DNA of 64,000 bases from an uncultured Solirubrobacterales bacterium (GTDB lineage: Bacteria > Actinomycetota > Thermoleophilia > Solirubrobacterales > Solirubrobacteraceae): the NCBI GenBank assembly GCA_963725525.1, contig CAVRYP010000009.1, positions 417,111-481,110 of the forward strand. The letters are read 5' to 3'. The notes under the pieces were generated by a model that worked only from the letters and a program-made list of their open reading frames with translations, was not told where the DNA came from and ran no database searches. Position numbers and translations under genes: made by a program. This document shows positions 2,249-52,486 of this stretch, piece by piece (position 1 is the first letter of the stretch; every line of letters starts with the position of its first letter).

Positions 2249-2941
2249 TCAGGCCGCAAACAGCGTCAACTCGGGCTCGCGCTCGCCGCGCAGCACTTCC
2301 AGGTCGACCTCCACGCACTCGATTCCACGCGCCTGCGCGAGCACGCGCGCCTGCGGCTTGATCCGCTGTGCAGCGAGCACCCCGCGGCATGAGCCCAGCG
2401 CGGGGTCCAGGCGGATGCGCTGCAGGTAGCGCGTGAGCTGCTCCACCGCATCGATCGTGCCCATGCGCTTGATCTCCACCGCGATCCACTCATCCTCGCC
2501 ATCGCGGCACATCAGATCCACGGGGCCGATGTCTGTGGGCCACTCGCGGCGCACGAGCCGAAAGCCCTCCCCGCACCACTGCGGCGCGGCGGCGAGGAGC
2601 TCCTGCAGCTCGCGCTCGAGGCCCTCCTTCTCCAACGACACGAGCACGTCGAGCTCGTGCTCGATATCCGAGAGCACCTCGTGCAGCACGATCTCCACGC
2701 GATCCTCCTGCTTGTGGCGACGCACCACCAGGCGCGCGGGCGCGCCCTCGGGAGCGGTCTCCTCTTCGAGCACCGTGGGCGGGGTCATCCAGTTGAGCGG
2801 CTTCACATTGGGGCCGCCGCCATCGGCCCATACCATGAAGGTGCCATCGGCCTTGAACATCAACAGCCGCACCGCCTCGGGCAGCACGGTGGTGACACGG
2901 CCGATGTAGGAGACCTCGCAGCGGGCGACGATCAGGCGCAC
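2249..2941 (-). CDS. nucS: Mismatch-specific endonuclease NucS/EndoMS
   Basis: MRLIVARCEVSY.GR, KPLNWM, RREWPTDIGPVDL, VEIKR, VEQLTRY. Confidence 0.93.
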   Translation of the reverse strand: MRLIVARCEVSYIGRVTTVLPEAVRLLMFKADGTFMVWADGGGPNVKPLNWMTPPTVLEEETAPEGAPARLVVRRHKQEDRVEIVLHEVLSDIEHELDVLVSLEKEGLERELQELLAAAPQWCGEGFRLVRREWPTDIGPVDLMCRDGEDEWIAVEIKRMGTIDAVEQLTRYLQRIRLDPALGSCRGVLAAQRIKPQARVLAQARGIECVEVDLEVLRGEREPELTLFAA

Positions 2942-2983
2942 GCCGAGAACCTATCCGCTGCGCCGGATCGCTCTCCGGCGGCG

Positions 2984-3160
2984 TCACTCGCTGTCGGGCG
3001 GCGGCGGCTTCTCCTCCTGCGCCTCGCCGCTCATCGCCTCGCGGAACTCGCGCATGCCCTTGCCGAGCGCGCGCGCCATTTCGGGGAGACGCTTCGGGCC
3101 GAGCACCACCAGCGCGACCGCCGCGATGAAGATGATATGGACGGGGTTCTCGATACCCAT
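2984..3160 (-). CDS. tatA: Twin-arginine translocase TatA/TatE subunit (58 aa, absent from ORF track)
   Basis: Translated by hand: MGIENPVHIIFIAAVALVVLGPKRLPEMARALGKGMREFREAMSG... Confidence 0.9.
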   Translation of the reverse strand: MGIENPVHIIFIAAVALVVLGPKRLPEMARALGKGMREFREAMSGEAQEEKPPPPDSE

Positions 3161-3193
3161 GCCTGCTTTCAGGCTAGCGTGCCAGGTGCGCCG

Positions 3194-3607
3194 TCAGCGG
3201 TCGTTGAAGGGGTTCTCGACTCGAACACCAGCGTAGTCTTGGCCATCGTTCAGATCCTCCGAGAGCACGATCTCGCAGCCGAGCGCACGGGCCGCCTCGA
3301 GAATCGCGGCGTCCCAGTAGGAGATGCCGAATCGCTCGCGGGTGTCCAGGGCGGCGAGCACGGTGCTCAACGTGGTCTCCTGGATGGGAAACCGCCGGAA
3401 GGAGTCGATCAGCGCAGCAGCCTGCTCGTGCGTCAGGCGATCTGCCCTGGACTCGCGGGTCGCCTGCACATAGAACTCCTGGAGCACCTGCACCGAAAGC
3501 CCCACCTCCCGCCGAGCCAGGAGCTCGTTGGCCCTTGCGGCCTTCTTGCGCTCACCGGGATCGCGTGAGATCGCATAGAGCAGGATGATGGTGTCAGCGA
3601 ACTGCAC
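3194..3607 (-). CDS. PIN-domain (VapC-like) toxin
   Basis: FADTIILLYA, VLQEF, ISYWDAAILEAA, LSEDL, RVENPF. Confidence 0.88.
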   Translation of the reverse strand: MQFADTIILLYAISRDPGERKKAARANELLARREVGLSVQVLQEFYVQATRESRADRLTHEQAAALIDSFRRFPIQETTLSTVLAALDTRERFGISYWDAAILEAARALGCEIVLSEDLNDGQDYAGVRVENPFNDR

Positions 3608-42282: not shown

Positions 42283-42374
42283 TGGCGGAGAGGGCGGGAT
42301 TCGAACCCGCGATGGAGTTTAACCCCCATACTCGCTTAGCAGGCGAGTGCCTTCAGCCACTCGGCCACCTCTCC
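42283..42374 (-). tRNA. tRNA-Ser(GCT), CCA encoded
   Basis: GGAGAGG acceptor; CTCGC-CT-GCT-AA-GCGAG anticodon arm; long variable arm; GGTTCGAATCC; ends GCCA. Confidence 0.95.
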
Positions 42375-42480: not shown

Positions 42481-42569
42481 GGAAGGGTGGCAGAGCGGTT
42501 GAATGCACCGGTCTTGAAAACCGGCAGGCGGGTACCCCCGTCTCGGGAGTTCGAATCTCCCCCCTTCCG
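42481..42569 (+). tRNA. tRNA-Ser(TGA), CCA not encoded
   Basis: GGAAGGG/CCCTTCC acceptor; CCGGT-CT-TGA-AA-ACCGG; long variable arm; AGTTCGAATCT. Confidence 0.93.
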
Positions 42570-43553: not shown

Positions 43554-44198
43554 TCATCGGCGCTCGGCGCAAAGCAGTTCCAGCGTCCCCCAAGCGGTCC
43601 GTAGCCTGTCCCGGCGGCGAACCTCCGCGAAGCCTGCCTGCTCGATCAGGGTTGGAAGTTCCCCGCGCGCGTGCGCACCGGTGATCTCGAAGCCATCGAG
43701 CATCCTCAACGCAAAGAAAGCAACCCCCATCAGGGCATCCTGAGGCGCTCCCCAATCGGCGACGTGCAGGCGTCCGCCGGGCCGCAGTACCCGGTGTGCC
43801 TCAGCCAGCGCCGTGATCTTCTCCGCCGTGTCCAGGTGGTGCAGCACCAGCGAGGCGACGACGCGATCGTAGACCTGCTCTGGCAAAGGCAGCTCGAGAG
43901 CGGTGCCCTCGAGCCAGTCGATCCCGCTCCCTCGGTCCTTCGCACGAGCCCGCGCAAGCGCATCGGGATCGGGGTCGAGCGCGGTTATCGAGCACACGGG
44001 GAGCGCGCGCGCGAGGCGCACCGTGAGGCTGCCGGTGCCGCAGCCGATCTCCAGCACCGCGCTGGGCTCGCCGGCCGTGACCTGTGCCACCAGGCGCGAG
44101 CGGAAGGTCCGCTCGCGCATCGTGAGCGCGACGACGGGGTCATAGAGCGCCGTCAGGCCGTGGCGCCCGGCAGCTGGGAGAAAGGTTGCCTCGGACAC
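43554..44198 (-). CDS. Class I SAM-dependent methyltransferase
   Basis: VLEIGCGTG, LVLHHL, RVLRPGG. Confidence 0.88.
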   Translation of the reverse strand: MSEATFLPAAGRHGLTALYDPVVALTMRERTFRSRLVAQVTAGEPSAVLEIGCGTGSLTVRLARALPVCSITALDPDPDALARARAKDRGSGIDWLEGTALELPLPEQVYDRVVASLVLHHLDTAEKITALAEAHRVLRPGGRLHVADWGAPQDALMGVAFFALRMLDGFEITGAHARGELPTLIEQAGFAEVRRRDRLRTAWGTLELLCAERR

Positions 44199-44294
44199 CA
44201 CCTGGATGATGATCGAATGCACAAGGCTGCGCAAAGGGCCTAGTTGAGCATCTGACTATCAAGACTTCTCCGGCTCGGTCCGATGATTCGGGGG

Positions 44295-45597
44295 ATGTCA
44301 TCGACCCTGCTCCCAACCACCGAGCGCACCGGCGGACGCTGGATCGATCACTGGCTCGATGGGGTCCGCGATCTGGAGAACCTGCGCGCGGGCCATCCGA
44401 TGATGGATGCGGTGATCGATGAGGTCGACGGGCGCATGATCCGCGTCGGCGAGCAGTGGCTGGCGGACTTCGCCTCCTGCAACTACCTCGGCTTCGACCT
44501 CGATCGCGAGATCATCGAGTCGGTGCCCGCCTACCTGGAGGCCTGGGGAACGCATCCGAGCTGGTCGCGGCTGCTCGGCAGCCCGGTGCTGTACGAGCAG
44601 ATCGAGACTCGACTGAGCGAGCTGCTGGGCTGCGAGGACTCGCTCGTGCTGCCCACGATCACGCACATCCACGCCTCGGTGATCCCGGTGCTGGCGGCCT
44701 CGGGGACGATCTTCCTCGACGCGCGCGCGCACAAGACGATCTACGACGGCTGCCAGGTGGCGCGCTCGCGCGGCGCCGCAGTGCGCCGCTTTCGCTTCGA
44801 GGACCCCGCTCACCTCGACGAGCTGCTCGCGGCCGATCGCGACCGCATGCGCCTGGTGTGCATGGACGGGGTCAACAGCATGACCGGCAACCCGCCCGAC
44901 CTGCGCGCATTCGCAGAGGTGACGCGCCGTCACGGAGCGCTGCTGTATGTCGACGACGCCCACGGCTTTGGCCTGGTTGGGCGAGCGAAGGACCGGGCCT
45001 GCGGCGCTCCGTGCCCATACGGGAGTCGCGGCAACAGCATCGTGCGCCACTTCGGCGAGAGCTATGAGGATCTGGTGCTGGTGGGCGGTTTCTCCAAGGC
45101 CTACTCCTCGCTGCTCGCGTTCATCGCCTGCCCCACCGAGGTCAAGAACCTGCTGAAGGTCGCAGCGCCGCCCTACCTGTACTCGGGCCCCTCCCCCGTC
45201 GCCTCGCTCGCGACGGTGCTGAGCGGCCTCGAGGTCAACGACAAGCGCGGCGATGAGCTGCGCGCGACCGTGCACCGCCACACCGTGCGCGTGCTGGAGG
45301 CGCTGAGGGAACTCGACGTGCACACGCCCAACCGCTCGGAGCTGCCGATCATCGAGATCCCGCTGCGCGATCACGACGCGCATCGACGCCGTGGGCGAGC
45401 TGCTGTTCGAACGGGGTGTGTACGTCACGCTGGCCGCCTACCCGCTGGTGCCCAAGGCGGAGGTGGGCTTTCGCGTGCAGCTGACCGCCGCCAACACCGA
45501 CGCAGAGGTCGACACACTGATCGCCGTTCTACGCGAGCTTGCCGAGCAGGACGAGCTCCAGTCCGTCATCGCGCCAAGGACGGCGGAGGTGAAGTGA
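44295..45597 (+). CDS. PLP-dependent alpha-oxoamine synthase family protein (divergent); frameshift near 45380
   Basis: FASCNYLG, LDARAHKTIYDG, DGVNSMTG, VDDAHGFG, GGFSKAY, YPLVP...FRVQLTAAN. Confidence 0.85.
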
Positions 45598-48500
45598 TGG
45601 ACCGCGGCGCGCGGGTGCAGCCGGCCAGTGTGGGCAGTCGCCGCGGCGGGTTGCAGCTGTGGCAGGGGTACCTCGCGTTCGCGGCGGTGGGAGCTTTCCT
45701 GTACCTGCTGGTGCCGCCGCTGAAGGGCAATGCGGCGTTCTTCAACGTGCTCGGCCTCACCAGCTGGATCGCGGTGATCGTCGGGATCCGTCGCAACCGT
45801 CCCGGCTACTCGCTGCCGTGGTGGCTGTTCGCCGTTGGTCTCTTCCTGTACTGGCTGGGCGACGTCTACACCTACAGCTACCCGAAGTACATCCTGCACG
45901 CCGAAGTCCCGTTCCCCTCGATCGGCGACGCGATCTACCTCACGGTGTACCTCGCGCTGATGCTGGGGCTGCTGCTGCTGGTGCGCAGGCGCAACCCGCA
46001 GCGCAGCCGCAACACGCTGATCGACGCGGCGATCCTGACGCTTGGCCTGTCGCTGCTCTCGTGGGTGCTGCTGATTGCCCCCTACCTGCACGACCCCACC
46101 CTGGGCCTGTTGCCCAAGCTCGTCTCGGTCGCCTATCCGGTCGGGAGACATCATCCTGCTGGCCGCCGCGATTCGCCTGGTGCTCGACTGCCGGCCTGCG
46201 CCGGCCCTCCTTCTACCTGCTGAGCGCGAGCATCGTCTCGCTGCTGGTCGACCGACTTCGTGTATGGGGTGATGACCCTCGACAACGCCTTCCACCATCA
46301 GCTGCTGCTCGACCTCGGCTGGTTCTCCTATCAGGTGCTGTGGGCCGCGGCCGCGCTTCACCCCTCGATGGTGGAGCTGCAGGAGCCGGCCGGGCCCGCC
46401 GGAGGCCAAGCTGACGCCGCTGCGCCTGAGCTTGCTCACGGGCGCGTCGCTGATCGCGCCCGTGTGCATCCTGCTGAAGGAGCTGCGCCGCGGCGACCTC
46501 GATCTGATCGTGATCATCTGCGCTTCGGTCGTGCTGTTCGGCTTCGTGGTGATGCGCATGGTGGGCCTTGTGCGCCAGCAGGAGCGCTCGGTGGCGCGCG
46601 AGCGGCTGCTGAGCTCCTGCGGAGCCGCGCTCGTCGTCGTGCGCGACGCGCGAGGATATGCAGAAGGCGGCGATGAAGGTGGTCGCGCCGCTGTTGGAGA
46701 GCTGCGGGGCCGGCGTGCTGTGCCTCGTGCAGCCGCCTTCGCAATCGGCCTTCGCCGATGAGACGCTCACAGCGGTGGCGCGCAGCGACGACCCCCGCTG
46801 GCCGGCGCGCGATCTGCCCGAGCACACGGGCGAGCGGCTGCTGCGGCTCGCCGGCGAAGACAGCTACCGCGACATGCGCCTGGACACGGCCCTGCTCGGC
46901 GCGCTGGAGCTGCCGCGTGAGTGGATCTGCGGGCTCGTGCTGCCGCTGCCGGTGCGCGACGGCGTGATGGGCTTGCTGCTGATCGCGCGACCCACCGCCA
47001 CCCCGCGCGAGGCCCGCGGCGCACTCGTGGCGCTGGCCACCCAGCTGGCGCTCGCGCTGGAGGGCGCGCGGCTCACCGAGTCCGTGCACGTGCAGCGCAG
47101 CGAGGCGCGCTTTGCCTCGCTGGTGCAGAACTCCAGCGACCTGATCACGGTGGTGGGCTCGGATGCGACGATCACCTACCAGAGCCCCTCCTCAGAGCAC
47201 GTGCTCGGGTATCCCGCCGAACGAGCTTCTGGGCACCCGCTTCGATCGTCTCGTGGCGCCCGACGACGCCGGGCACCTGCTGCGACTGCTGGCGGACGGC
47301 GTCGGCCTACGCGCGGCGCGACGGCGAGGTGATCGAGTGCACGCTGCGCCACCGCGACGGCGGGATGCGCCAGTTCGAGGTGCTGCACACCAACCTGCTC
47401 GGCGACGAGCACGTGCAGGGGATCGTGCTGAACGCGCGCGACATCTCCGAGCGCAAGGCCTTCGAGGAGCAGCTCGCCCACCAGGCCTTCCACGACCCCG
47501 TCACCAACCTGCCCAACCGCGCGCTGTTCGTCGAGCGCGTGCGCCACGCGATCAGTCGCGCGCGCCGTGAGAGCGGGGAGCTGGGGGTGATCTTCCTCGA
47601 TATCGACGACTTCAAGACGATCAACGACAGCCTCGGCCATGGCGCCGGCGACGCGGCGCTGATCGATGTGGCCAAGCGCCTGTCGCTGAGCATCCGCTCG
47701 AGCGACACCGCGGCGCGCTTCGGCGGCGACGAGTTCGTGGTGCTCTTCGAGGACCTCGATGGCACCGAGACGGCGGTGGAAGTCGCCGAGCGGATCCTCG
47801 AGGATCTGCGCCAGCCGCTGATGGTGGCCGGCAAGGAGCTGGTGGTGCGCGGCTCGATCGGCATCTCGATCCTCGAGGGCGATTCGAGCGCGAGCGCGGA
47901 TGAGCTGATCCGCGACGCCGACGCCGCGATGTACATCGCCAAGCGCGACGGCAAGGGCGGCTACCGGCTGTTCGAGCCCGAGATGCACGCGGGCGTGCTG
48001 GCGCGCCTGGAGTTGCGCGCCGATCTGCAGCGGGCGCTGGACGATGGCCAGTTCGATCTGCACTACCAGCCGATCGTGCGCCTCGCCAACGGCCAGGTCG
48101 CCGGCATGGAGGCGCTCCTGCGCTGGCACCACCCCGAGCGCGGGCTGGTGGTGCCCGACGACTTCATCCCCTTCGCGGAGGAGACCGGGCTGATCGTGCC
48201 GATCGGCCGCTGGGTGCTGCGCGAGGCCTGCCGTCAGGCGGTGGCGATCCAGCGCCAGTGGGACGAGGACCCGCCGCTGTACATGTGCGTGAACCTGTCG
48301 GTGAAGCAGCTGCAGCACAGCGACGTGATCTCCGACGTGAGCGACGCGCTCGCGGACTCGGGCCTGGATCCCGCGACTGCTCACGCTGGAGATCACCGAG
48401 TCGATGCTGATCGACGATCCGGAGATCGCCGTGGTGAAGCTCTCCGAGCTGCGCTCGCTGGGCGTGCGGATCGCGATGGACGACTTCGGCACGGGCTACT

Positions 48501-48829
48501 CCTCGCTGAGCTATCTCAGCCGCTTCCCGGTGGATGTGATCAAGATGGACCGCTCGTTCCTGCGCCCGGAGACGACACCGGAGGCGGTGGACCTCTCGAG
48601 CGCCGTCGTCGCGCTCGGCAGCTCGCTGGCCCTGGAGGTGGTGGCGGAGGGCATCGAGCTCGACGAGCAGTTCAAGCGCCTGCGCGACCTCGGCTGCGAG
48701 CTCGGGCAGGGCTTTCACTTCGCACACCCGATGGAGTCCGAGCGGATGCTCAACTACCTCGCGGGAGCATCGTTGAACGGCGGTGAGCCGACGAGCGAGC
48801 CGGCGCCCGCCGCGCCCGATGCCGCCTAG
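45597..48829 (+). CDS. Multi-TM sensor + GAF + PAS + GGDEF + EAL protein, several frameshifts
   Basis: TGATG coupling; TMs with FPSIGDAIYL; FASLVQNSSDLI; HDPVTNLPNR, RFGGDEF, MEALLRW, DDFGTGYSSL, VAEGIE, GQGF. Confidence 0.85.
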
Positions 48830-50303
48830 CGACCCTCACCCGCTCGCACGCCCGGCGAGTCACCCGCGCGTGCTCCCGCCCCCGCGTCCCTACCGCGGTG
48901 CGCCGGGGCGCCCGGGCCCGAGGGCGCTGCTCGCGCACAGGGACTTCAGGCTGCTGTTTGCGGGGCGCTGCGTATCGCTGCTGGGGGATGGCGCGTTCCT
49001 GGTGGCGCTCGCGTGGCAGGCCTACACGCTCTCCAACGCCCCCACCGCGCTCTCGCTGCTGGGGATCGCGATGACGGTGCCGCTGATCACGCTGCTCTTG
49101 CTCGGCGGCGTGGTGAGCGACCGCCACGACCGCCGCCGGGTGATGCTGCTCGCCGACCTGGTGCGCGCGGCGCTGCTGGGCGTAATGGGAGCGCTCGCGC
49201 TGAGCGGCAACCTGCGCCTGTGGCAGATGATGGTGATCGTCGCGATCTACGGCGCCGCGCAGGCGTTCTTCGATCCGGCGAGCGACGCGATCGTGCCCGA
49301 GCTGCTCCCCGACGAGCAGCTCGGCGAGGCCAATGCGCTGGAGCAGTTCGTGCGCCCGCTCGCGCTGCGCCTGGCGGGACCCGCGCTGGGCGGGGTGCTG
49401 GTGGGCGGATTCGGCCCGGGCGCGGCGTTCCTCGCCGACGGCGCGACCTTCGTGGCCTCGGCGGCGGCGCTGTGGGCGATGTCCGCGCGCGTGCTCTCCA
49501 GAAGGAACGTCGAGACCTCTCGCGCCGAGAGCCCCCTCGAGCGTGCGCTCGCCGCGCGGTTCCCCGATCGCGCGCGGGGCGAGAGCGGCTCGCTGCCGGT
49601 ACTCACGGAGACCCCCTCTCCAGCGATCGCGGGGGCCACGCGTGAGCTGCGCGAAGGCTGGAGCTATGTGCGCCGGCACGTGTGGCTATGGGGGACGTTC
49701 GCGAGCGCGGGCATCGCGTATCTGCTGTTCATGGGGCCCTCGGAGGTGCTGCTGCCGTTCATGGTGAAGCACGAGCTGGGGGGCAACGGCGTGCAGCTCG
49801 GTCTCGTGCTTGGGGCGGGCGGTCTCGGCTCGGTGGCGTGCGCGGTGGCGATGAGCCGCAGCGGGCTGCCGCAGCGCAGCATGAGCTTCATCTACGTGGT
49901 GTGGGCGCTCGCGACGGTCTCCGTTGCGGGTTATGGGCTCGCGACGGCGATGTGGCAGCTGATGCTCGCGAGCCTCGCCTTCAACCTGCTCGAGACGGCG
50001 GGGACGATCGTGTGGGCGACGATGAAGCAGCGCCACGTTCCGGGGCATCTGCTGGGACGGGTCTCGAGCCTCGATTGGCTGATCTCGATCGGGCTGCTGC
50101 CCGTGTCGCTCGCGCTCACGGGGCCATTGAGCGCCGCACTGGGGGTGCGCACGACGCTGATCGCCGCGGGGCTGCTGGGGGCGATGGCGACGCTCGGCGG
50201 CCTGGCGCTGCCGGGGATGCGGGCGGTGGACTACTCCTGGGGAGGACCAAGAGGGGGCTCGGCGAGAAGCGGCTCGGCGGCGCTCACCGCGAACACGATG
50301 TGA
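48819..50303 (+). CDS. MFS transporter (macrolide/enterobactin efflux-like)
   Basis: RDFRLLF, GVVSDRHDRRRVMLLADLVRA, LLGRVSS; overlaps previous stop by 11 nt. Confidence 0.88.
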   Translation: MPPSDPHPLARPASHPRVLPPPRPYRGAPGRPGPRALLAHRDFRLLFAGRCVSLLGDGAFLVALAWQAYTLSNAPTALSLLGIAMTVPLITLLLLGGVVSDRHDRRRVMLLADLVRAALLGVMGALALSGNLRLWQMMVIVAIYGAAQAFFDPASDAIVPELLPDEQLGEANALEQFVRPLALRLAGPALGGVLVGGFGPGAAFLADGATFVASAAALWAMSARVLSRRNVETSRAESPLERALAARFPDRARGESGSLPVLTETPSPAIAGATRELREGWSYVRRHVWLWGTFASAGIAYLLFMGPSEVLLPFMVKHELGGNGVQLGLVLGAGGLGSVACAVAMSRSGLPQRSMSFIYVVWALATVSVAGYGLATAMWQLMLASLAFNLLETAGTIVWATMKQRHVPGHLLGRVSSLDWLISIGLLPVSLALTGPLSAALGVRTTLIAAGLLGAMATLGGLALPGMRAVDYSWGGPRGGSARSGSAALTANTM

Positions 50304-50685: not shown

Positions 50686-51369
50686 CTAGGGAACCACGAT
50701 CGTGAAGGCGTAGCCCGTCGCGAGAGTTGTGGTGCCGGGCGTGTAGGTGTCGACCTCAAAGGCGCTCGCGGGACAGTTGGGGTGGTTTGCGTTGACGACG
50801 ATCGTGCCGGGTGCCCCGCCTGTGCTGTAGGAGACCTCGGGTGAGACCGTCACCGAGGTTGCGGCTGCGTTGACGGGAGCCGCCGGCGTGACGCAGTAGG
50901 CCCCTGCGGCGGGCTCTGTGAGGCCGGCGATCCCAGCGCTCTGCGCGGCGATCAGGTTGGCCTGGGTGGGCGAGGCGGTGGGCTGCACGAGCCCGTAGCC
51001 CGCGGTGCCCGAGGGCCCAGCGGGACCCTGGATGCCCTGTGGGCCGGTGGCGCCCGTGGCGCCCTTCGCGCCGGTGGCGCCCTTCGCGCCCTTGGCGCCC
51101 GTGGCGCCCTTCAGCCCACGCGGACCGGGCACGCCGGTGAAGCCGCGCGGCCCACGAGGACCGCGCAGGAGGCACTCGCGCACACGATGGTGGCCGGAGA
51201 GGACGGTTACGCATCTGGAGCGCGCCTCATGCGCGGTGGTCCCCAGCAGGCTCGTGCCGGCGAGGGCGGGGACGGCGACGGTCATCGCGCCCACCACGGC
51301 GGGGGTCGCGAGGAGGGTGAGCGTGCGGGGGTGCAGACGACGGCGCGGAGCGCGCGAGGAGCGATGCAT
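50686..51369 (-). CDS. Secreted collagen triple-helix repeat protein
   Basis: Signal-like N-terminus; about 18 consecutive Gly-X-Y triplets; Cys-containing C-terminal domain. Confidence 0.8.
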
Positions 51370-51466
51370 TTGGAGGTCCCTTTCCGTTGGTTGCTTTCTA
51401 GAGAACACTCGGGCGAGCTCAGCGGAGCGGTGGAACGGCCGCGGGCGGCGCGCACCGACTCCAGTC

Positions 51467-52486
51467 TCAGCCCACGTTTTGGGGGAGGCGTGCGGGCAGC
51501 CCGGCGCGCACCGCGGGGCCGGGGGCGCCGGCGAGCGAGTCGACGGGGGCGTTGCGCTCCTCGCGCACGATGTAGAGGGGGCGGTGCTTGACCTCGTCGT
51601 AGATGCGCCCCACGTACTCGCCGATCACGCCGAGGGCGATCAGCTGGATCCCCCCGAGCAGGAGGATCGCGATCGTGATCGAGCCGAAGCCGGGCAGGTA
51701 GGAGTCCACCAGGCGCAGCCCGATGACGACGGGGATCGCGATGAAGGCAACGCCGGCGGAGAGCAGCCCCACGTAGGTGGCGAGCTGGAGGGGAAGGTGC
51801 GAGAAGGAGGTGATGGCGTCGAGCGAGAAGCGGAGCATGCGTCGCAGCGTGTACTTGGTCTCCCCGGCGTGGCGAGCGTCGCGCTCGTAGGGGACGGCGG
51901 TCTGCGTGAAGCCCACCCATACGGTCATGCCGCGCAGGAAGCGCGAGCGCTCGGTCATCGCAAGCAGGGCGTCGAGCGCGCGGCGGTCGAGCAGGCGGAA
52001 GTCCCCGGAGTTGGGCTCGAGGTTGACCTGGGCGAGCTTGTCGAAGAGCTTGTAGAACCAGGAGGCGGTGGCGAGCTTGAAGGCGGTCTCGCCCTCGCGC
52101 TGCCTGCGCACGGCATAGACCACGTCGGCGCCCTGCTGCCACTGCTCGAGCATCGTGGGGATCAGCTCGGGGGGGTCCTGGAGGTCGGCGTCGATCATCG
52201 CCACGACGTCCCCCACGGCGTGCTCGAGGCCGGCGGTGAGGGCCGCCTGGTGGCCGAAGTTGCGGGAGAGGTGGACGACGCGCACGCGCGGATCGGCGTC
52301 GGCGAGGCGATCGAGCAGCGCTCCGGTGCCGTCGGAGGAGCCGTCGTTGACGAGCACCAGCTCGATGGCGTAGTCGGCGACGGCCGCGAGGGTGCGGCTC
52401 ACGAACAGCTCGACGAGGGCCTCCTCGTTGTAGACGGGGGCCACGACGCTGAGCAACTTGGGAGAGCGGTGGGAGGAAGTGGGCAT
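51467..52486 (-). CDS. GT2 polyprenol-phosphate glycosyltransferase (GtrB-like)
   Basis: [53 protein letters not shown]. Confidence 0.92.

Follow-up and report, generated by a model that had tools for sequence, protein, structure and literature searches.

We describe here three adjacent genes in a stretch of 64,000 nucleotides (the window; G000:C9:417111-481110) taken from a metagenome-assembled genome (MAG) of a soil Solirubrobacteraceae bacterium of the class Thermoleophilia. This genome, labelled G000, has an assembly of 3.51 Mb in 9 contigs that is rated 80% complete. On the + strand, positions 44283-50303 carry genes for an Aminotran_1_2 enzyme dependent on pyridoxal phosphate (PLP), which is an alpha-oxoamine synthase (AOS), for a large membrane PAS-GGDEF-EAL protein (the sensor) and for an MFS_3 transporter of the major facilitator superfamily (MFS). 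Our results suggest, tentatively and with somewhat less than an even chance of being right, that this cassette represents a three-gene module, conserved among Actinomycetota, which acts as a product-sensing circuit. Comparison of sequences strongly supports a functional coupling of the three genes, and it would be plausible to read them as signal synthase, receptor and exporter. The circuit is probably an undescribed signalling system: in the full-text literature we found no paper joining an oxoamine synthase with GGDEF, cyclic di-GMP (c-di-GMP) or a fatty acyl-AMP ligase (FAAL), and nothing relevant for CqsA or LqsA in Actinobacteria.

The evidence for coupling starts with linkage. When one genome of each species was scanned, a relative turned up in at least 576 genomes, and linkage was tallied in the best 80 of these. 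In five loci the sequence stops short, less than 1.1 kb beyond the AOS gene, which leaves 75 that can be assessed. The AOS gene is followed by the sensor gene in 74 loci, 73 of them also with the MFS gene, while one further locus has a sensor-AOS fusion together with the MFS gene. The first-pass annotation of this DNA had proposed a signalling operon, and its linkage of sensor and synthase stands: the two are adjacent in 75/75 assessable loci, 74 with the transporter, among unrelated neighbours. On the megabase contigs of loci L017, L018 and L019, for example, AOS, sensor and MFS occur between completely different flanks. AOS orthologues are 74-88% identical across many species, and record titles place the carriers in Solirubrobacteraceae, Thermoleophilaceae, Baekduia and Gaiellales. 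Across the phylum, 400 evenly sampled genomes, with one unpublished genome (G149) that enters the tallies but from which no sequence was taken, contained AOS orthologues in 35 cases (at E <=1e-148, save for one weak FAAL-type match), from five or six further families and some other classes. No orthologue was found in 8 other genera of the family of the window, which are represented in this sample by genomes 97-100% complete. A ten-transmembrane-helix (10TM) module homologous to that of the sensor lies near the AOS gene, on the same strand, in 18/18 loci fetched from the sample, with gene order shuffled. The module is present in 34/35 AOS-positive vs 41/365 AOS-negative genomes, a contrast that is descriptive only because the genomes are related.

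The arrangement of the genes varies between lineages, which we refer to as families. In the 18 fetched loci, the order is AOS, sensor, MFS in f10 and f12; in f25 it is AOS, MFS, sensor, or AOS and sensor, and one f25 locus (L116) has AOS, an apparent 1148-aa 10TM-MFS_3 open reading frame (ORF) and then the sensor. In L116 (3299-6745, - strand), this ORF directly follows the AOS gene and joins a 10TM module, about 430 residues without a Pfam match and MFS_3; L114 and L126, also of f25, show the same order of matches. In f30, from genomes of 7.5-9.9 Mb, a single fusion of 1473-1637 aa reads 10TM-GAF/PAS-GGDEF-EAL-AOS. Several species of the genus of the window have, in place of the split form, a 1213-aa fusion, 10TM-GGDEF-EAL-AOS, followed by MFS; the membrane module of this fusion and that of the split sensor are homologues (E 5e-15). 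Family f17 has 10TM-HisKA_3-HATPase kinases flanking the AOS. Such kinases, with HisKA_3, HATPase_c and the 10TM module, are encoded on either side of the AOS gene at L119 (7949-9604 and 2666-6379, both - strand), and the f17 genomes have five or more 10TM histidine kinases each. The link to a sensor is reinforced by the fusions and by the fact that another family places 10TM histidine kinases next to the AOS. As the AOS stands beside 10TM kinases in f17, the constant partner is the membrane module and not the c-di-GMP domains, and this pairing mirrors pairs of a synthase and a sensor kinase.

The cassette as assembled, with its divergent neighbour placed last, is made up of the following parts.

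44283..45377, + strand: first part of the AOS gene, with codons starting where coordinate mod 3 = 0 and a start at ATG 44283 or 44295; it contains the His of RAHKT, DDAHG and the catalytic Lys of GGFSK.
45378..45597, + strand: C-terminal part of the AOS gene, after one extra base near 45377, with the conserved YPLVPKAEVGFRVQLTAANTD segment inside and the stop TGA at 45595-45597.
45597..46570, + strand: start of the sensor (ATG 45597) and its ten-helix membrane module, with extra bases at 46143, 46189, 46248 and 46398.
46640..47100, + strand: GAF-like domain of the sensor, with an extra base at 46636 just ahead of it.
47110..47455, + strand: PAS domain of the sensor, with extra bases at 47218 and 47302.
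47485..47955, + strand: GGDEF domain of the sensor, with an RSSD I-site and the GGDEF motif.
48019..48829, + strand: EAL domain and C-terminus of the sensor, with EALLR, DDFGTGYSS, EGIE and QGFHF, an extra base at 48374 and the stop TAG at 48827-48829.
48819..50303, + strand: MFS_3 (DHA3-like) transporter, one open frame from ATG 48819 or an alternative GTG at 48783.
43554..44234, - strand: divergent class I S-adenosylmethionine (SAM) methyltransferase, a neighbour outside the conserved cassette.

Both reported gene overlaps are present: the TGA at 45595-45597 shares a base with the ATG at 45597-45599 (TGATG), and the transporter ATG at 48819 lies so far ahead of the sensor stop at 48827-48829 that the two genes overlap by 11 nt. 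The transporter is indeed one ORF, as had been annotated for all three genes, but the AOS and the sensor are not continuous ORFs as assembled. The search for regulatory signals at the cassette revealed no sigma-70-like promoter and no convincing terminator, and an Rfam scan around it gave no riboswitch and only two upstream tRNAs.

The enzyme belongs to the AOS superfamily of PLP fold type I (PF00155, E 2.7e-27). Its catalytic set (H153, D228, H230, K272 and R397) comprises the His of RAHKT, DDAH, the Lys of GGFSK and the Arg of GFRVQ; these residues align with those of the Thermus synthase ThAOS, are invariant in 22 orthologues and can be read in the window. P0160 and P0224 were left out of the alignments because their text is frameshifted. 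The motifs LDARAHKT, whose D..AHKT had been noted as standing in place of BioF NHAS, DDAHG and GGFSK are found in the window, and no biotin genes lie near the cassette, bioB and the true bioF being on another contig (C3). With profile models, the AOS falls below every curated subfamily cut-off tested: it scores 193.3 bits on the bioF model TIGR00858 (cut-off 426.45), 175.6 bits at best on the serine palmitoyltransferase (SPT) models (cut-off 500), 145 bits on the KBL model (cut-off 460), 103 bits on the ALAS model (cut-off 339) and 84.7 bits on the CqsA model NF005526 (cut-off 428). The BioF of the genome itself, encoded immediately after bioB on contig C3, reaches 453.7 bits on the bioF model. 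Hence, the cassette enzyme is an AOS but not BioF, as had been proposed, with the true BioF elsewhere and a tree that separates both; as it lies below the SPT equivalog cut-offs, we would not predict it to be an SPT either. A specific kinship with CqsA and LqsA, which had been drawn on to support a signalling role, is not supported: the score of the cassette AOS on the CqsA model is under that of the genome's own BioF (206 bits). A search of the PDB with the AOS returned no CqsA chain within E 1e-10; the best solved structure was ThAOS (PDB 7POA, E 1e-38), with SPT and KBL at about 1e-34.

Among 1.84 billion cluster representatives, which were searched exhaustively, the sequences closest to the cassette clade (35-45% identity) are AOS domains that form the C-terminus of larger proteins. 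These proteins are of the architectures AMP-binding-ACP-AOS (~1090 aa; ACP, acyl carrier protein), KS-AT-DH-ACP-AOS polyketide synthase (PKS), AprA-MT-ACP-AOS (SxtA-like) and ACP-AOS. In a quick maximum-likelihood tree (IQ-TREE), which was built from a set without SPT, ALAS and CqsA reference sequences, the cassette AOS, the fused AOSs and some stand-alone relatives form a clade (SH-like approximate likelihood ratio test, 96) that adjoins the FAAL and PKS groups. Escherichia coli BioF, E. coli Kbl and both other paralogues of G000 lie across a branch of 100% support and length 1.5, and the cassette AOS thus groups with neither BioF nor Kbl. The enzyme would share its fold and chemistry with BioF, KBL and ThAOS, but differs from BioF and KBL in lying under every curated cut-off, a long and fully supported branch away, and in having no adjacent bio or tdh genes. 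The assembly-line AOS domains (FAAL-ACP-AOS, PKS-AOS and SxtA-like) are its nearest sequences, form sister clades and have the same catalytic residues. Unlike them, the cassette AOS either stands alone or is joined to a signalling protein, with neither an adenylation nor a carrier domain next to it, and it carries a family-specific loop after DDAHG.

Two further AOS genes came to light. A third paralogue in this genome makes up the C-terminal 400 residues of an 835-codon frame (L010:106-2613, + strand, equal to G000:C3 ~119825-122332). It scores best on the SPT (381 bits) and KBL (347 bits) models, in both cases under cut-off, and the 430 codons at the N-terminal end of the frame may be no more than a spurious extension. 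In another lineage, a stand-alone AOS that is 47% identical (L025:7001-8362) lies between two response-regulator genes, with dCache-HAMP and HisKA kinases around it and type IV pilin-like genes nearby, a signalling context without GGDEF.

The sensor is a composite GGDEF-EAL protein (PF00990, E 4e-47; PF00563, E 4.5e-69), and its orthologues are of 1040-1096 aa. In an AlphaFold2 (AF2) model of residues 1-480 (predicted local distance difference test [pLDDT], 85), ten membrane helices lead, by way of a long connecting helix, into a GAF domain (Z 16.9 to a PtsP GAF), after which come PAS, GGDEF and EAL. GGDEF, the RSSD I-site, EALxR, DDFGTGYSS, EGIE and QG(F/Y) are kept in 25/26 sensors, and the sensor is therefore predicted both to make and to break c-di-GMP. 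The sensor of the window had been credited with intact motifs: it is polytopic, and GAF, PAS, GGDEF, EAL and DDFGTGYSS can indeed be read, but its ORF is broken by frame shifts and the motifs therefore lie in three different frames. No Pfam family was found for the ten-helix module (MASE5, 14.2 bits vs 25.2; MASE3, 12.4 vs 31), and a comparison of the whole 480-residue model with the PDB by Foldseek and VIA-align matched the GAF part alone. In the ESM Atlas, the module heads GGDEF, GGDEF-EAL, HisKA, HisKA_3, GGDEF-HD (HD-GYP) and guanylate-cyclase proteins, mostly of Actinomycetota and Chloroflexota. To judge from these varied outputs, the module behaves as a signal-input module. The third protein is an MFS_3/DHA3-type transporter (PF05977; 111.8 bits for the window protein vs a gathering threshold of 27, and 106 bits for an orthologue); the best named models, Tet(V) and EntS, stay under their cut-offs. 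A complex prediction for the AOS and the GGDEF-EAL region scored 0.00, which is no answer and speaks neither for nor against coupling.

How might the three proteins work together? In the product-sensing circuit that we favor, the stand-alone AOS, whose clade otherwise consists of assembly-line off-loading domains, would condense an acyl thioester and an amino acid into an alpha-aminoketone, a product that would probably be amphipathic. MFS_3 may then export or flip this product, moving it across or into the membrane. The ten-helix module would read the product, or the flux of its export, and the sensor would use GAF and PAS to set the balance of diguanylate cyclase (GGDEF, with an RxxD I-site) vs phosphodiesterase (EAL); in f17, the 10TM module would pass the information to a two-component pathway. 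What the sequences show is the domain make-up, the catalytic motifs kept intact by orthologues, the conserved adjacency, the fusions and the varied outputs of the 10TM module; from these we infer the chemistry and the export, the direction in which information flows and a physical complex, and feedback in both directions between sensor and enzyme is possible. A bolder version, which we hold still more loosely, would make this a widespread signalling system of soil Actinomycetota, in which an aminoketone autoinducer from a new AOS clade is exported by MFS and perceived by a new family of ten-helix receptors with c-di-GMP or kinase output, a functional analogue of Cqs/Lqs built on a natural-product-type AOS.

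Several points weigh against this circuit. The AOS has no specific relation to CqsA or LqsA. The cassette includes neither an acyl-activating nor a carrier gene that would point to the acyl donor. It would be unusual for the synthase of a diffusible signal to be fused to its own receptor, and a sensor-regulated enzyme fits equally; the fusions are at least as good an argument for control of the enzyme by a physically coupled sensor. It may be, then, that 10TM, GAF and PAS sense some other cue and control c-di-GMP turnover together with a bound or fused AOS, perhaps through c-di-GMP binding at the I-site or the EAL domain. The exported aminoketone or lipid would then be an output (a surface, antibiotic or membrane compound) and not an input. 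The position of the AOS at the C-terminal output end, after GGDEF-EAL, in both fusion types is consistent with such control, as are its sister relation to natural-product assembly-line domains, the inclusion of an exporter in the unit and the conserved RxxD I-site. However, the neighboring 10TM histidine kinases have no c-di-GMP domain, so c-di-GMP control of the AOS cannot be a general rule, and it is the membrane module that is the constant partner. We regard regulation of the synthase by the sensor as a serious but rather unlikely explanation.

It is also conceivable that no communication is involved and that the genes serve membrane-lipid homeostasis, with the AOS making a sphingoid-like base or aminolipid, the MFS flipping it and the 10TM module monitoring the membrane. 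Among the solved structures, SPT and KBL are some of the best matches (E ~1e-34), the relatives of MFS_3 include, weakly, the lysophospholipid transporter LplT, and the high conservation of the AOS (74-88% identity in many species) would suit such a role. However, all SPT models are far under their cut-offs (176 vs 500), no reductase, ACP or N-acyltransferase genes are linked, and the distribution is patchy: genomes 97-100% complete from 8 other genera of the family gave no orthologue, which speaks against an essential lipid of the envelope. This explanation is improbable in our view.

The product-sensing circuit has partial parallels among known systems. As in CqsA/CqsS of Vibrio and LqsA/LqsS of Legionella, the gene for an AOS-superfamily enzyme adjoins that for a polytopic membrane sensor, and in f17 the neighbor is a membrane histidine kinase, which makes a synthase-plus-receptor logic plausible. 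Unlike CqsA, the cassette AOS lies outside the CqsA clade (84.7 bits vs the cut-off of 428). CqsS has a six-TM design (PMC4821796), whereas the cassette receptor has ten helices of an unnamed family. The Cqs/Lqs systems use a phosphorelay; the cassette differs in its GGDEF-EAL output, its dedicated MFS exporter and the synthase-sensor fusions of some lineages. Streptomyces venezuelae CdgF is a 10TM-PAS-PAC-GGDEF-EAL composite protein with no known signal, and its deletion has no developmental phenotype (PMC6205966). The sensor resembles CdgF in overall architecture, in having both motif sets intact and in its actinobacterial host, a likeness drawn from the architecture given in PMC6205966 and not from module sequence; it differs in having an extra GAF domain. 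No linked AOS or MFS gene is named for cdgF in PMC6205966.

The broken frames of the AOS and sensor genes need an explanation. Three approaches, namely GC3 phase (G+C content by third codon position), a seven-state Viterbi segmentation and tblastn with an intact orthologue, agree on the frame switches. The AOS has one uncompensated extra base near 45377 and a compensated +1/-1 pair at 44982 and ~44995, by which four codons, including the invariant GER after DDAHG, are garbled. The sensor has eight frame shifts, at ~46143, 46189, 46248, 46398, 46636, 47218, 47302 and 48374. Four sequencing runs, each from a separate and independent soil study, gave contigs of relatives that are ~95% identical to the window and not of the same strain; these contigs have exactly one base fewer at all ten places, and no further frame-changing differences were seen in the contig rows shown. 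The sequencing runs contained only 5-26% of sampled words. All ten differences are single-base gains in the window, with no losses and no stop-creating substitutions, and every AOS and sensor segment keeps its codon-position GC bias and ~80% amino-acid identity. Frameshift-like switches between frames of the same strand occur genome-wide at 3.7 per 10 kb of coding sequence (~880 in total), and the same script gave ~1.1 per 10 kb for the loci of relatives; many of the sister genomes are long-read MAGs. The essential rpoC gene (G000:C9:245256-249076) is also broken, with an internal TGA and its N-terminus in another frame, while rpoB is intact. At seven of the 10 sites, GTCG/CGAC is no more than 4 nt away, vs a background of 12%. 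This test was post hoc, the motif having been picked after the sites were seen; together with the broken rpoC and the genome-wide switches, the enrichment suggests base-calling errors in the MAG that are linked to the motif and possibly to methylation.

As independent contigs lack the extra bases and the assembly is error-prone genome-wide, the breaks are most likely assembly artefacts, and we are confident, short of certainty, that they are indels of the assembly and not biology. Two points weigh against this. Breaks are 3 to 4 times as dense here (>=13 per 10 kb) as in the genome on average, for which reason we keep real decay as a minority alternative; and the contigs without the extra bases are from ~95% identical relatives, which leaves room for it. 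The AOS and sensor would then be genuine pseudogenes of this strain, disrupted by many small insertions and intact in relatives, and the unbroken state of the adjacent MFS gene and of rpoB would be in keeping with this. The uniform single-base gains, the fully kept GC bias and amino-acid identity of all segments, the enrichment at GTCG/CGAC and the damage to rpoC, alongside the genome-wide excess in a 9-contig, 80%-complete assembly, all argue otherwise, and we give decay only a slight chance. The sensor gene of the closest relative, L046 (90.6% identical; a short-read assembly of ~10x), is marred early on by an in-frame stop and by 30 garbled residues (2914-3300), owing to which L046 was dropped as an intact near-copy. 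As seen in the window, indels in long-read MAGs can hide or mimic gene decay.

Other genes surround the cassette. The divergent methyltransferase had been suggested as a tailoring enzyme for the product, but an upstream homologue occurs only in L046, 1 of ~120 loci, and the suggestion is not sustained. Just upstream of the methyltransferase and the cassette, within ~1.8 kb called non-coding by the frame model, lie two divergent tRNA genes with long arms, at 42286-42374 (- strand) and 42481-42569 (+ strand), with scores of 63 and 58 bits. Downstream are genes for a collagen-triple-helix-repeat protein (50686-51408, - strand) and a GT2 glycosyltransferase (51467-52486, - strand), a pair that is also found downstream of the cassette in L019.

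In summary, the signals of most membrane-bound GGDEF-EAL proteins are unknown, Streptomyces CdgF included. The sensor family described here arrives with a candidate ligand synthase and an exporter, to which it is genetically locked in hundreds of species and, in some, fused; the question of the sensor input is therefore directly testable. If the product-sensing circuit is true, AOS-based signalling would reach beyond Proteobacteria and would be tied to c-di-GMP.

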